A stretch of DNA of 4,711 nt from a virus (taxonomy: Duplodnaviria; Heunggongvirae; Uroviricota; Caudoviricetes), in the IMG/VR virus record IMGVR_UViG_2547132270_000004, positions 1 through 4,711 of that record. One strand, written 5' to 3'. The notes under the pieces are model-generated. The model was not told the DNA's origin and made no database searches. It worked only from the letters and a program-made list of their open reading frames with translations. Positions 1 to 4,711 of this stretch are shown in pieces; the stretch's first letter is position 1, and every line of letters starts with the position of its first letter. The translations under genes were made by a program, and so were the position numbers.

Positions 1-19
1 GCATCACAAAATTCACTTT

Positions 20-61
20 AAAAAGGGCGGCAGAGCAGTCACGGAGTAAAACTGATACCGC
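20..61 (-). terminator. Rho-independent terminator forming the 3' end of DicF
   Basis: On the minus strand GGCGG (61-57) pairs with CCGCC (29-25) around an imperfect extended stem, followed directly by a TTTTT run (24-20). Confidence 0.55.
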
Positions 62-77
62 CAAACGCCACCAGAAA
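25..77 (-). ncRNA. dicF: DicF small regulatory RNA (ftsZ-targeting sRNA of the dic division-inhibition operon)
   Basis: Minus strand reads TTTCTGGTGGCGTTTGGCGGTATCAGTTTTACTCCGTGACTGCTCTGCCGCCC followed by TTTTT. This is 53 nt and matches my recollection of E. coli K-12 DicF at all but one position (G for A at the 10th nt). It lies at the distal end of the minus-strand operon downstream of the DicA-like repressor, as in Qin. Identity is from memory, not a search. Confidence 0.8.
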
Positions 78-413
78 ATTGATAACAGAGGGCGTTGTAG
101 CGGGGTTGTCACTTAAGCGTATGGTCAACCTGACAACCCGGTGTCCTCAACGGGGAAGGAATAACCCCGCCATACTTACCGCCGCGCCATTTCGCGGAGT
201 GCCACAACCGGAAGCGCACGGTCGAATTAAATTTAACGACACCGTACAGAGAGACCAATTTCGCCGTGTGCTTTCGCGTTATGCCCTGGCTTTTCAGGGA
301 TATATCCTTTCAGTAAACTGTCAGTACCGGATTCTTATCCGTGTCCGGCGCACGACCACACGTGACAGCGTGTTGGTCTCCATTTTTAACCCAGAACCTC
401 AATGGAGGATAAA

Positions 414-623
414 ATGCCAAACAAAAAAAGAAATCCGCTTATTGAAAAACAGATTGAATGCCTTGTAAATCAACTCAGGCAATCAGGGTTATTAAAAACT
501 CATTCAGAGTTGAGGCTCACAGAATCAGCATTCGACGATAAATTAAATAATGTCCTTTATAATGGCATTATTGATTTTAATCGTTCTGTTGGTCGCCGCG
601 GCCCTGCTGGTGTTTCCTTATAA
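414..623 (+). CDS. Hypothetical small protein (69 aa), convergent with the minus-strand operon
   Basis: ATG at 414 has a perfect GGAGG (404-408) 5 nt upstream; the ORF-track start at 402 has no RBS. Open frame to TAA 621-623. No recognisable domain. The C-terminal third overlaps an alternative-frame hydrophobic ORF, so the true coding frame is uncertain. Confidence 0.4.
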   Translation: MPNKKRNPLIEKQIECLVNQLRQSGLLKTHSELRLTESAFDDKLNNVLYNGIIDFNRSVGRRGPAGVSL

Positions 624-1262
624 TTACCAGTCAATCCAGAGCGGACCGTGTTCAGCGTAAATATAACTGTACACATCCAGATTATATTTGTGGTCTGTTA
701 AGAACAGGCCGCAAATACATGCCGAAGCTTCAAGGGCAGCGGCTCTGTTACTGAATAACCATGTAGCAACATTCCAGCGTTTTTCTGCATCCCAGTCTTT
801 CTCAAGGCCTGATACCATGAAGAAACCGTTAGTGTTGCCATCAAATAATTCTGTTTCCAGATTTTTAAGCAATGCCTGATGGACTCTTGCCAGGTATTCC
901 GCCGGAATTTTGCCACGAATTCTGATGAGATTGTCATAAACAAACATGTTCCCCGCATATGGCGATTTTTCTTTCTTGTTTTTTAAACCAGCATCATGAG
1001 CAAACTGATCAATTTCTTCTTCCGTTGGTTTCGTATTGATGTTTTGCGCTGTCGTTTCTGCAATTTTATTTGCCACACTCTCTGAGTCGTGTTTATTTAT
1101 AGACGCACAGAAATACAATCCGGTAAACGCATCGCGCACATTACGAGCTATATTATCAGTGTCTTTTTTCGTTACCGATTCCAATGCAAGTTCGTTCAGA
1201 CGATGACGAAGTGTATGTGCTGCAATCTCCTGGATTGAAGTAGGTAAATCTTTAAATTCCAT
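624..1262 (-). CDS. Hypothetical protein (212 aa), unrecognised cargo gene in the repressor-controlled operon
   Basis: Long minus-strand ORF (216 codons in the track). Preferred start is the internal ATG at 1260-1262, preceded by GAGG with a 6-nt spacer (minus strand TGATGAGGTTGACGATGG). The alternative ATG at 1272-1274 overlaps the upstream stop (TGATG). Predicted soluble and acidic, with no motif I recognise. Confidence 0.75.
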   Translation of the reverse strand: MEFKDLPTSIQEIAAHTLRHRLNELALESVTKKDTDNIARNVRDAFTGLYFCASINKHDSESVANKIAETTAQNINTKPTEEEIDQFAHDAGLKNKKEKSPYAGNMFVYDNLIRIRGKIPAEYLARVHQALLKNLETELFDGNTNGFFMVSGLEKDWDAEKRWNVATWLFSNRAAALEASACICGLFLTDHKYNLDVYSYIYAEHGPLWIDW

Positions 1263-1273
1263 CGTCAACCTCA

Positions 1274-1426
1274 TCAGTCAGAGTTTCTTGCTAACCAGCG
1301 ATGCGCGCCAGCTTCGGTTTTAAACGTTTTACTTTTGGTATACGTCATCGCGGTGAACGTGCCGTCCTGGTTGGGAAACACGTCGTACACCAGAGATTCG
1401 TTGTTGCCAAGATCGATAGTATCCAT
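1274..1426 (-). CDS. ydfA: Small protein (50 aa), YdfA-like (DUF1391-type) directly downstream of the dicA-like repressor
   Basis: The track ORF 1274..1519 has no RBS at its first ATG. The internal ATG at 1424-1426 is preceded by GGGGAAATGAGG (SD GAGG, 5-nt spacer). Size (50 aa) and position match ydfA (51 aa) of Qin and ydaF of Rac. The family assignment rests on synteny and size, not on verified sequence identity. Confidence 0.6.
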   Translation of the reverse strand: MDTIDLGNNESLVYDVFPNQDGTFTAMTYTKSKTFKTEAGAHRWLARNSD

Positions 1427-1503
1427 GCTGACCTCATTTCCCCTTAACGCCGGGGTAGCGGAACTGTTTGCTGAGAACACCGTGCGGTGTCTTGATGAAT
1501 GAT

Positions 1504-1555
1504 AATTTAGTTTTCTCATGTTAATTGGTCAAGTATTTTTGATGAGAAAACTCAA
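1504..1555 (-). promoter_or_regulatory. Putative sigma70 promoter of the early-left (dicB-type) operon with two flanking operator-like sites
   Basis: Minus strand: -35 TTGACC (1532-1527), 17-nt spacer, -10 TAAATT (1509-1504). Operator-like TGAGAAAACTCA at 1543-1554 sits just upstream of the -35. An 11/12 copy TGAGAAAACTAA (minus strand, 1518-1507) overlaps the spacer and -10. Confidence 0.45.
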
Positions 1556-2101: not shown

Positions 2102-2329
2102 ATGTTTAAATCAGACGTAATTAATTTTTATGGGACGAAAGCCAAAGTAGCGAAAGCTGCTGGTGTTGATCCATCTGCTGTTTCTCAATGGGGGGCACTG
2201 GTTCCTGAAGGTCGCGCGATGCGCCTGCAAGAGGCATCCGGCGGGGAACTTCAGTACGACCCCAAAGTTTATGACGAATATCGTAAGGCAAAGCGGGCGG
2301 GGCGGCTGAACAATGAAAATCACCCCTGA
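2102..2329 (+). CDS. dicC: Cro-like HTH regulator (DicC/YdaS family), 75 aa
   Basis: Divergent from the repressor gene. ATG at 2102 follows a strong SD GGAGGGG; the track start at 2075 is a TTG lying inside the operator. HTH-like segment GTKAKVAKAAGVDPSAVSQW. Size matches DicC (76 aa). Confidence 0.8.
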   Translation: MFKSDVINFYGTKAKVAKAAGVDPSAVSQWGALVPEGRAMRLQEASGGELQYDPKVYDEYRKAKRAGRLNNENHP

Positions 2330-2834
2330 ACAGGTTTGTGAGGCTCTGGATGCCTGGGTATGCCGACCAGGAATGACACAGGAGCAGGCGACGATATTAA
2401 TCACGGAAGCATTCTGGGCTCTGAAAGAACGCCCGAACATCGATGTTCAACGCGTCACGTTTGATGATGGCGCGGTTGATCAACGGGCGCTGGGCGTCAA
2501 CCGGGTGAAGATATTCGAACGCTGGAAAGCTATTGATACCAGGGATAAGCGGGAAAAATTCACGGCGCTGATTCCGGCAATTATGGAGGCTATCCGGATA
2601 AGTGATTTCAGGTTGTATCGTGAAATTACTGACGGAAAAAGCATTACATACATGATCGCCGGGTTAAACAAAGAATATGGCGACGTGGTGGAGTCAGGTC
2701 TGCTTTTTGCAGATCCGGCTGTTGTGGATCGTGAAACCGACGAACTTATAGAAAAAGCCATTGCTTTCAAGCGTGCGTATCGTCAGCAATATCAACAAAA
2801 AGCCGGATGGAATTATGAGTCTTCTGTTTGCTGA
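2313..2834 (+). CDS. cII-position regulatory protein (173 aa), possibly YdaT-like CII functional equivalent
   Basis: ORF overlaps the cro-like gene by 17 nt (2313-2329) and sits where lambdoid phages carry cII. It shows no resemblance to lambda CII itself. The YdaT-family assignment is by synteny and vague recollection only. Confidence 0.75.
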   Translation: MKITPEQVCEALDAWVCRPGMTQEQATILITEAFWALKERPNIDVQRVTFDDGAVDQRALGVNRVKIFERWKAIDTRDKREKFTALIPAIMEAIRISDFRLYREITDGKSITYMIAGLNKEYGDVVESGLLFADPAVVDRETDELIEKAIAFKRAYRQQYQQKAGWNYESSVC

Positions 2835-3780
2835 ACGCCCACTGGTTATTAACACGCAGCTGGCGATGAAAATTGGCCTGAATGAAGCCATTGTACTGCA
2901 GCAGCTGCATTACTGGTTGAGAGATACTAATTCCGGCATGGAATGTAACGGGGTTCGCTGGATTTATAACACAACAGAACAATGGCTGGAACAGTTCCCG
3001 TTCTGGTCAGAGTCAACGTTAAAACGCGCATTTGCAAGTCTGAAAACGCTGGGGCTTTTGCGTTGCGAAAAGCTCAACAAATCAAAGCGTGACATGACTA
3101 ATTTTTACACGATTAATTACGAGAGTGAGCTTTTAGATGGTGGCAAAGTGAGCGAATCCATCAGGTCAAAATGCGCCGCTCCATCAGGTCAAAATGACAC
3201 GATGGAAGAGGTCAAAATGGCACGCTCCATTGGTTCAAAACGACCCAATGTCATCGGGTCAAAATGGCCTGATGATCTTACAGAGAATACAACAGAGAAT
3301 ACAACAGAGAATAAAAACACTTCTCGTCCGGAAGCTTCGCAACCGGACCCGCAGACGGCTGAACAGGATTTTTTAATCCGACACCCTGATGCGGTTGTGT
3401 TCAGTGCGAAAAAACGCCAGTGGGGAAGTCAGGAAGATTTGGCGTGCGCACAGTGGATCTGGGGACGAATCGTGAGTCTTTACGAGCAGGCGGCCAGCGA
3501 TGATGGCGAGATCACGAGACCGAAAGAACCCAACTGGACAGCATGGGCCAATGACGTGCGCACAATGCGGATGCTGGATGGCAGAACTCACAGACAAATT
3601 TGCGAAATGTTTGGGCGGGTACAGCGGGATCCATTCTGGGTAAAAAACATCATGAGTCCGTCAAAGCTCCGCGAAAAATGGGACGAACTGGTCATCCGCC
3701 TGGGGCGTTCATCTGTACAGCGTTGTGTGAATCATATTTCTGAACCGGACACCGAAATTCCGCCGGGGTTCAGGGGGTAA
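2815..3780 (+). CDS. Phage replication initiator / replisome organizer (lambda O-like), 321 aa, with internal iterons
   Basis: ATG at 2815 is chosen over the track's TTG at 2761; it overlaps the upstream gene's stop by 20 nt. The N-terminal domain has the look of a replisome-organizer DNA-binding domain. The central low-complexity linker is encoded by the iteron array and tandem repeats. It lies immediately upstream of the DnaC-like loader. Confidence 0.85.
   Translation: MSLLFAERPLVINTQLAMKIGLNEAIVLQQLHYWLRDTNSGMECNGVRWIYNTTEQWLEQFPFWSESTLKRAFASLKTLGLLRCEKLNKSKRDMTNFYTINYESELLDGGKVSESIRSKCAAPSGQNDTMEEVKMARSIGSKRPNVIGSKWPDDLTENTTENTTENKNTSRPEASQPDPQTAEQDFLIRHPDAVVFSAKKRQWGSQEDLACAQWIWGRIVSLYEQAASDDGEITRPKEPNWTAWANDVRTMRMLDGRTHRQICEMFGRVQRDPFWVKNIMSPSKLREKWDELVIRLGRSSVQRCVNHISEPDTEIPPGFRG
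3157..3266. repeat. Iteron array (five direct repeats, about 23-bp phasing): putative phage origin of replication inside the initiator gene
   Basis: Core GGTCAAAATG occurs at 3164-3173, 3187-3196, 3210-3219 and 3257-3266, with a variant GGTTCAAAACG at 3232-3242. Extended consensus is about TCCATCAGGTCAAAATG. The arrangement is analogous to ori-lambda within gene O. Confidence 0.6.
3280..3315. repeat. 12-bp tandem repeat ACAGAGAATACA, 2.9 copies, A-rich, encoding TENTTENTTEN
   Basis: Two perfect copies (3280-3291, 3292-3303) and an 11/12 third copy (3304-3315), immediately downstream of the iterons. Confidence 0.7.
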
Positions 3781-3786
3781 CGAACC

Positions 3787-4533
3787 ATGAAAAATATTGC
3801 GACAGGCGGCGTTCTGGAACGTATCCGCAGACTGACCCCGCCACATGTAACCGCCCCATTCAGAACGGTAGCGGAGTGGCGCGAGTGGCAGCTTGCTGAA
3901 GGCCAGAAGCGTAGCGAGGAGATCAACCGCCTGAATCGCCAGTTGCGGGTGGAAAAAATTCTGAATCGCTCAGGCATCCAGCCGTTGCACCGTAAATGCT
4001 CGTTTGCGAATTACCATGTACAGAACGACGGCCAGCGATACGCGTTAAGTCAGGCGAAATCCATCGCTGATGAACTGATGGCCGGATGCACAAATTTCGC
4101 GTTCAGCGGAAAACCTGGTACCGGAAAAAACCATCTGGCGGCGGCTATCGGAAATCGCCTGCTGAAAGACGGCCAGACAGTGATAGTGGTTACTGTGGCT
4201 GATGTTATGAGTGCCCTGCACGCCAGCTATGACGACGGGCAGTCAGGCGAAAAATTTTTGCGGGAACTGTGCGAAGTGGATCTGCTGGTTCTTGATGAAA
4301 TTGGCATTCAGCGTGAGACGAAAAACGAGCAGGTGGTGCTGCATCAGATTGTTGATCGCCGGACAGCATCGATGCGCAGTATGGGGATGCTGACAAACCT
4401 GAACTATGAGGCCATGAAAACGTTGCTCGGCGAGAGGATTATGGATCGCATGACCATGAACGGTGGGCGCTGGGTGACTTTTAACTGGGAAAGCTGGCGC
4501 CAGAATGTCGTCCAGCCAGGAATCACGAAGTAA
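3787..4533 (+). CDS. dnaC: DnaC-family AAA+ replicative helicase loader (prophage DnaC paralog), 248 aa
   Basis: Walker [18 protein letters not shown] and Walker [10 protein letters not shown]. Collinear similarity to E. coli DnaC along the whole length (MKN..., [33 protein letters not shown]). RBS GGGGG at 3772-3776. Confidence 0.95.
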
Positions 4534-4555
4534 TTTTTACCAGGAGAAAAATTTA

Positions 4556-4711
4556 ATGGAGACTGTTTTTGACGCACTGAAAGCAATGGGAAAAGCCACA
4601 TCCATAGAACTTGCGGCGCGACTTGATGTCAGTCGTGAAGAAGTGCTTAACGAACTATGGGAACTGAAAAAGGCTGGCTTTGTTGATAAAAGCGCGTACA
4701 CCTGGCGTGTG
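4556..4711 (+). CDS. Partial small ORF (5' part, 52 codons, runs off the window), possible winged-helix protein
   Basis: ATG at 4556 with GGAG (4543-4546) upstream; open to the window end. Translation begins [52 protein letters not shown]. It occupies the slot after the helicase-loader gene. Confidence 0.5.

Follow-up and report, generated by a model that had tools for sequence, protein, structure and literature searches.

The prophage small RNA DicF, which blocks cell division, has reportedly been under study since 1989. In the Qin prophage of Escherichia coli K-12, its gene belongs to the arrangement ydfABC-dicF-dicB-ydfD, and the RNA is represented in Rfam as RF00039. The 5′ end of DicF is made by RNase E and transcription termination gives a 53-nt form, while a 72-nt form arises from read-through transcripts in an RNase III-dependent manner (review PMC9438474, citing Faubladier et al. 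1990). Regulation in trans has been demonstrated genetically in K-12 (PMC5069750, PMC5861419). Mutational work places the pairing of ftsZ and pykA mRNAs in the 3′ region of DicF and that of xylR mRNA at its 5′ end, with the xylR pairing site required within the first 10 codons (PMC5069750), and manX mRNA pairs with the 3′ end through a published site, G145-C162 (PMC5861419). Related modules occur in other phages and prophages. Phage Evi (LR597642.1) and prophages adjacent to mtfA, including that of Escherichia albertii EC06-170 and those of related genomes, carry dicF together with kil. E. coli E24377A and similar ETEC-like strains carry dicF-dicB-ydfD, and phage P1 has an annotated ‘dicF-like region’ in the leader of its C1-controlled ban operon.

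The DNA analysed here, called the window in what follows, is the entire 4,711-bp draft contig AEJY01000228.1 (GCA_000208505.2), and it ends 24 nt past a DicF homolog. Rfam cmscan gave a single above-gathering match across the whole window, which is DicF at 76..25 on the minus strand. This match reaches 76.4 bits (gathering score, 48; E = 3.2e-16), spans the full RF00039 covariance model (1-52 of 52) without truncation, and retains standard base pairs at all consensus pairs. The minus-strand sequence from 77 to 25, UUUCUGGUGGCGUUUGGCGGUAUCAGUUUUACUCCGUGACUGCUCUGCCGCCC, agrees with K-12 dicF (NC_000913.3 1649382-1649434) at 52 of 53 bases; the sole difference is the change of A10 to G (C on the plus strand), and the 43 nt at the 3′ side (nt 11-53) are identical. 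A simple terminator scan did not pick up the DicF hairpin, whose loop and bulges presumably lie beyond the limits of that scan, and the covariance-model structure was used for it. With its terminator hairpin and U-tract, the RNA carries a module that is expected to bind Hfq.

These results bear out the central claim of an earlier note on this DNA, which had proposed a DicF homolog with its terminator. The covariance-model search that it had suggested as a check is the one reported above, with its match over the gathering score, and the alignment to K-12 dicF confirms the K-12 sequence that it assumed, the coordinates and the position of the variant. The T-tract at 24..20 and the tail that follows it to the end of the window are likewise as described there. 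Judged on sequence grounds, then, the minus strand encodes a genuine full-length DicF, and every defining feature that can be tested in sequence is present: the covariance-model score, the homology, the terminator with its U-tract, the complementarity to ftsZ and the upstream operon context. DicF has long been known as a family, and public genomes as well as a sequenced phage already contain this exact allele.

Table 1. Features of the DicF locus and its leftward operon in the 4,711-nt window
Feature	Position	Strand	Evidence
DicF small RNA, 53-nt mature form as annotated in K-12	25..77	-	RF00039, 76.4 bits; 52/53 identity
Variant base G10 (A in K-12), in the 5′ single-stranded seed	68	-	Comparison with K-12
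Rho-independent terminator: stem-loop of DicF nt 16-52 (62..26), C53, TTTTT (24..20)	20..62	-	Rfam consensus structure
Tail, 5′ arm of a long-range helix of ~21 bp, presumed RNase III site for 72-nt DicF	1..19	-	Folds of the homologous stretch
Untranslated leader / DicF precursor	78..330	-	Strong conservation with K-12 Qin and other prophages
212-aa ORF, same leftward operon, phrog_2151	624..1262	-	ORF call, phrog match
DUF1391 (ydfA-like) gene, first of the leftward operon	1274..1426	-	Pfam PF07151, E 1.9e-27
Candidate leftward early promoter (PL / dicBp equivalent), TTGACC-17-TAAATT	1504..1532	-	Consensus scan only
DicA-like CI-type repressor, 135 aa	1617..2024	-	56% identity to K-12 DicA, E 2e-51; Pfam HTH_3, E 1.2e-16
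Cro / DicC-like regulator, divergent from the repressor	2102..2329	+	Pfam P22_Cro, E 3.6e-17

From its gene content, the window is the part of a lambdoid prophage that carries the functions for immunity and replication (Table 1). Read along the minus strand, the order is the DicA-like repressor, a promoter-like site, the DUF1391 gene, the 212-aa ORF, approximately 550 nt without a minus-strand gene, and DicF. The operon continuity upstream of DicF, whose absence the earlier note would have counted against its proposal, is therefore present, from the repressor through the DUF1391 gene, the 212-aa ORF and the leader to the small RNA. The plus strand beyond the Cro-like gene carries genes for a YdaT/CII-like protein, an O-like replication initiator and a DnaC-like loader, and the start of a ydaW-like gene (phrog_630). 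E. coli prophages and the phages mEp460 and Evi have annotations with the same order of genes, and the arrangement is that of K-12 dicA / ydfABC-dicF-dicB. The putative leftward early promoter is a weak sigma-70-like consensus match in a region where the count of promoter-like sites in the consensus scan is not above the shuffled expectation; its position agrees with that in K-12, whose dicB operon begins in the interval from dicA to ydfA. On the opposite strand, antisense to the leftward operon, there is also a conserved 69-aa ORF (414-623; phrog_4274, WP_001133037.1 in relatives) between the 212-aa ORF and the DicF leader, with a promoter-like site at 386-415 (+).

The leader contains a 9-bp hairpin at 139..103, GGGTTGTCA...TGACAACCC, and closer to DicF an AACGCC segment (96..91) that pairs with DicF nt 9-14 in the predicted fold of the unprocessed RNA. 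Part of the leader, 86-208 on the minus strand, is conserved alone at approximately 90% identity in phages that lack DicF proper (Stx2c phages such as the one compared at L030 2501-2623, cdtI and 2H10), and it gave no match to an Rfam family. Leader sequence is also present in P1 and P7, where it lies directly behind the C1-controlled ban promoters and overlaps the annotated ‘dicF-like region’ of P1 (L029 2501-2595). In P1 the likeness extends over approximately 95 nt at 78-82% identity with window ~101-197, and the position directly behind a repressor-controlled early promoter is shared as well. However, the P1 region gave no DicF covariance-model match at E <= 0.01, and the likeness is that of the precursor leader rather than of the mature small RNA. 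A role for the leader in processing or antitermination is only a guess.

Compared with the Qin locus of K-12, the window has the same terminator, U-tract and tail and a conserved leader, and in both loci a DicA-type repressor gene and a DUF1391 (ydfA-like) gene precede DicF. The differences are the G at position 10, the replacement of ydfB and ydfC by the 212-aa ORF and the opposite-strand 69-aa ORF, and the presence of kilR rather than dicB in the nearest relatives of the window. Because the repressor is just 56% identical to K-12 DicA, immunity differs between the two. The closest relatives over the left part of the window are eight mtfA-type prophages fetched via the 212-aa ORF (L006-L013, including AP014857.1 of E. 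albertii EC06-170), which are 99.9% identical to the window over 1-1497 and 98-99% identical over 2204-4711, with another allele of the immunity segment between these two stretches. They and phage Evi share with the window both G10 and the tail, and their dicF-kil modules share the spacer that follows; unlike the window, which stops at the tail, the Evi and mtfA-type records run on into kilR, an exonuclease gene and an integrase gene. The dicF-kil prophage of E. coli 377323_2f also lies next to tRNA-Ser. E24377A and similar ETEC-like strains carry G10 as well and are 98.9% identical over window 1-1464, which is slightly less similar than the kilR-type relatives, and in contrast to these they have dicB-ydfD after DicF.

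The immunity segment at 1498-2203, which includes the 5′ part of the leftward promoter region together with the repressor, operators and beginning of cro, had no megablast match in the relatives that are otherwise 99.9% identical, and its best match is to other E. coli prophages such as tcmA_3. By this pattern of matches the segment is a classic mosaic exchange of an immunity module. Because the segment differs, the longer contigs were ruled out as the continuation of the window itself. The prophage of E. coli tcmA_3, which is also the best whole-window match, has a divergent DicF-like RNA (L001 4025-4076) that scores 32.4 bits, below the gathering score of 48. This RNA is missing 9 nt of the 5′ seed and has several changes in the stem and loop, and it keeps the U-tract, the tail, the spacer and dicB. 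It is possible that this copy is a DicF paralogue with different targets.

After the U-tract, the minus strand continues from 19 to 1 as AAAGTGAATTTTGTGATGC (transcript AAAGUGAAUUUUGUGAUGC). Folds of the homologous stretch from K-12 and from the closest relative (L015) pair this tail with a segment that would lie approximately 130 nt beyond the window, just 5′ of the ribosome binding site of dicB or kilR. The folded stretch, which runs from the start of DicF up to the start codon of the following gene, has z = -4.2 in K-12 and -4.3 in L015, and in neither case was any of the 200 shuffled sequences as good. Read from the alignment, the sequence changes on either arm preserve pairing: K-12 has U where the others have C on the 5′ arm, opposite G, and likewise U for C on the 3′ arm, opposite G, while the kilR-type sequences differ by one extra A and by a change from A to G opposite U. 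Adding 19 nt to the 53-nt form places the end of the longer RNA within the helix arm, at about window position 6. Since the 72-nt end falls inside the arm, the window would hold the 5′ arm of the processing helix, with the 3′ arm off the contig, and the predicted long-range helix fits the RNase III site known from the literature.

The gene that follows can be approached through the relatives. In all 12 of those fetched by an exact match to the 212-aa ORF or to the O-like protein (L006-L013 and four longer contigs, the latter via the O-like protein), kilR follows DicF, with its ATG 156 nt past the edge of the window, and E. coli 377323_2f likewise has kilR 156 nt beyond the equivalent position. 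KilR in the relatives is a 73-aa protein that carries PF27398 on precomputed calls and matches phrog_294, ‘Kil protein for bacterial septation inhibition’. In K-12, E24377A, tcmA_3 and phage mEp460, dicB is at that place, 151 nt past the K-12 equivalent of the window edge. Alignment shows that the intervening spacer of approximately 150 nt, GGTGAATGCGGCTAAGCGCAC..., is conserved in both dicB-type and kilR-type loci, and that the two types diverge only from GCATC(A)ACAAA(A/G)TTCATT, just 5′ of the ribosome binding site. Both modules are widespread. With at least 80% query coverage, dicF-spacer-dicB is found in 3,838 of 5,426 complete E. coli genomes and dicF-spacer-kilR in 1,840 of them, although among the latter some Rac-type matches start at query base 50, so that most of DicF is absent from these; phage Evi also contains dicF-spacer-kilR at 99.1% identity. 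The earlier note had expected dicB immediately to the left of position 1, and as written this does not hold, given that a conserved spacer precedes the next start codon in all relatives examined and that the closest relatives of the left 1.5 kb have kilR there. By linkage to the nearest relatives, the next gene is probably kilR, while dicB is possible and less favoured.

Several further observations concern the spacer and the ends of the contig. In several RefSeq records (L004 4872-4955, E. coli 377323_2f and others), dicF and kil are separated by an annotated 84-nt pseudogene with the label ‘DicB, incomplete’. This candidate was rejected as a gene remnant because the stretch is the ordinary conserved spacer, which also lies upstream of intact dicB. 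The call is likely artefactual, produced by resemblance to DicB annotations with an N-terminal extension, and not a sign of a decayed dicB. The spacer also gave a full-length match to the Rfam family STnc100 (RF02076) in two records (L015 5039-5224, minus strand, and L001 3804-4027), which at 36.4 and 34.0 bits (E ~2e-4 to 7e-4) is below the gathering score of 47. The contig breaks off 24 nt after DicF at one end and inside the ydaW-like gene (phrog_630; PF07789/DUF1627 in relatives) at the other, and both end sequences recur among several prophages of one genome: an E. coli genome has 2 matching places in the median case and as many as 11. Collapse of repeats during assembly probably caused the breaks, in which case the source genome would hold more than one such prophage.

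The G10 variant is a minor but established allele. Of 5,426 complete E. coli genomes, approximately 3,950 have some DicF; exact matches to the 61-nt G10 allele are found in 30 complete genome records and to the K-12 allele in 3,052. All 12 of the fetched kilR-type relatives have G10, three of them with a second change, G7A, and phage Evi has G10 as well. The variant is found together with dicB in E24377A and approximately six other E. coli genomes, including 720632 and IrN, and together with kil in 377323_2f, EC12 and Z1323CEC0019. Its occurrence with both genes rules out G10 as a predictor of the downstream gene. In the Rfam consensus for DicF, nt 10 is in lower case, which we read as variable within the family. 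A scan of genome contigs for a DicF pattern that allows either purine at nt 10 returned only two matches, both in E. coli species-representative records and both with A10. In RefSeq records of E. coli other than K-12, no feature is annotated under the DicF match.

We predicted pairing with the K-12 targets, which may not equal those of the host, and used region-restricted duplexes together with opening energies in place of whole-sRNA duplex prediction, which gave over-extended duplexes and was set aside. On these terms the predicted duplexes with ftsZ, pykA and manX involve DicF nt 19-53 and are unchanged by G10, at -29.4, -28.0 and -33.9 kcal/mol, respectively. The predicted manX site is an 18-nt stretch running from G to C, in agreement with the published G145-C162. 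The predicted xylR site lies at +8..+21, inside the first 10 codons, and forms a 13-bp duplex with DicF nt 5-17 in which the A10-U pair becomes a G10·U wobble, shifting the duplex energy from -20.3 to -19.7 kcal/mol. Once the cost of opening the small RNA is included, the net energy for xylR is predicted to change from -11.6 (A10) to -7.9 (G10). The earlier note had placed the variant in the 5′ region used for target pairing and had named ftsZ and manX as the mRNAs to examine with the variant base. The first part is right for xylR, whose published pairing is with the 5′ end; it is not right for ftsZ and manX, which use the 3′ region, and G10 falls outside both of these duplexes.

Taken together, these results lead us to a best explanation in which we have very high confidence: the locus encodes the Hfq-dependent small RNA DicF of a lambdoid (Qin-type) prophage, situated within the leftward early operon of the immunity region. 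The comparisons made here supply its identity, the compatibility of its structure, its upstream context, the helix in relatives and the frequency of its allele. For expression, the processing enzymes and the targets, the account follows the literature. A lysogen would be expected to keep the operon repressed. Relief of the repressor would allow transcription of the leftward operon, and RNase E would cut the leader to create the DicF 5′ end. The 3′ end could then be formed by either of two routes, namely at the DicF terminator with its U-tract, or after read-through by RNase III cleavage in the long-range helix between the tail and the segment just 5′ of the next gene. Mature DicF would pair through its 3′ half with the ftsZ, pykA and manX mRNAs, which would block division and alter metabolism, and through its 5′ end with xylR mRNA. 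The gene beyond the end of the contig would encode a protein inhibitor of division, either DicB or KilR. Because the G10 RNA is predicted to fold differently once processed, its activity on targets of the 5′ seed might differ from that of K-12 DicF.

This last point can be taken further, to the proposal that G10 marks a functionally altered DicF, in which regulation of the xylR type through the 5′ seed is weakened and that of ftsZ, manX and pykA is kept, making it a natural separation-of-function allele. We consider this unlikely, although the folding predictions speak for it. In the processed G10 RNA, nt 6-12 (GGUGGCG) are predicted to pair with nt 46-52 (UGCCGCC) in a 7-bp helix that displaces the usual 5′ strand of the terminator stem and occludes the seed. 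This alternative fold has a minimum free energy of -18.5 kcal/mol compared with -15.9 for the canonical one, and the probability of the canonical stem falls to approximately 0 for G10, compared with 0.98 for A10, the K-12 allele, for which the canonical fold has the minimum free energy. The predicted refolding is stable between 30 and 42 C, under both dangle settings and in 58- and 72-nt species, and the predicted energies for xylR pairing given above are weaker for G10. In addition, the G7A change of three relatives brings the canonical fold back, with a probability of 0.82. A more specific form of the same idea is that A10G acts as a natural structural switch, in which the seed (nt 6-12) would invade the terminator stem after RNase E processing, so that control of ftsZ, manX and pykA would be retained and targets of the xylR type lost, with G7A as a second-site restorer; we regard this modelled switch as rather improbable. 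Both forms are thermodynamic predictions only, and the energy gap between the two G10 folds is just 2.6 kcal/mol. When 23 upstream nt are included, the precursor is predicted to form the canonical terminator in both alleles (probability 0.97-0.99), with the seed paired to the AACGCC segment of the leader. Given this canonical precursor fold, a switch would need refolding after RNase E cleavage, possibly while the RNA is bound to Hfq. Moreover, G7A would weaken the xylR pairing further (-13.0) and is thus not a clean compensation, and nt 10 appears to be a variable position of the family. In the isolated mature G10 RNA, the alternative closing helix is still predicted to stand directly before the U-tract.

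Other readings give DicF pairing little or no part. The element might act mainly in cis, as an intrinsic terminator and processing site that gates expression of the division inhibitor gene and of the recombination genes that lie downstream, with at most a small role in trans in this host. Its place fits such a function, in that the terminator stands mid-operon, upstream of dicB or kilR, an exonuclease gene, xis and int in relatives, and the long-range helix encloses the spacer and ends beside the downstream ribosome binding site. The divergent tcmA_3 copy, moreover, keeps the terminator and tail while lacking 9 nt of the 5′ seed. However, the 43-nt part that pairs with ftsZ, manX and pykA shows no difference from K-12, which is more than a terminator needs, and regulation by DicF in trans is known from K-12 genetics; the two roles do not exclude each other. 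As the main function, a role in cis seems very unlikely to us. The DicF match might also be incidental to a protein gene on the plus strand. A 129-aa ORF with a TTG start does exist mechanically at 79..468, and the phage mEp460 record annotates a small plus-strand ‘hypothetical protein’ across dicF. This ORF nevertheless begins outside DicF, RefSeq annotations of relatives call nothing at its position, and the covariance-model score, the uniformly standard pairing and the U-tract all point to an RNA gene, so that we give this explanation almost no weight. The reading that we prefer is that of a trans-acting DicF within the leftward early operon, with which a terminator function in cis is compatible.

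The locus bears on several wider points. It is unsafe to assume as a rule that dicF implies dicB next door, given that a single dicF-spacer module can be joined to either dicB or kilR, and the point where the module joins these alternative genes lies at the distal arm of the helix presumed to be cut by RNase III. Annotation pipelines leave the DicF locus unlabelled. The influence of the 5′ seed, and of how accessible it is, on the targets that DicF chooses could be tested with G10 as a natural variant. On differential media, E. albertii is negative for xylose fermentation (PMC11903357), which would make a seed directed at xylR dispensable in that species. If the proposed loss of the xylR seed were true, and if the source of the window were E. 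albertii, then such a loss would fit a host without xylose fermentation.
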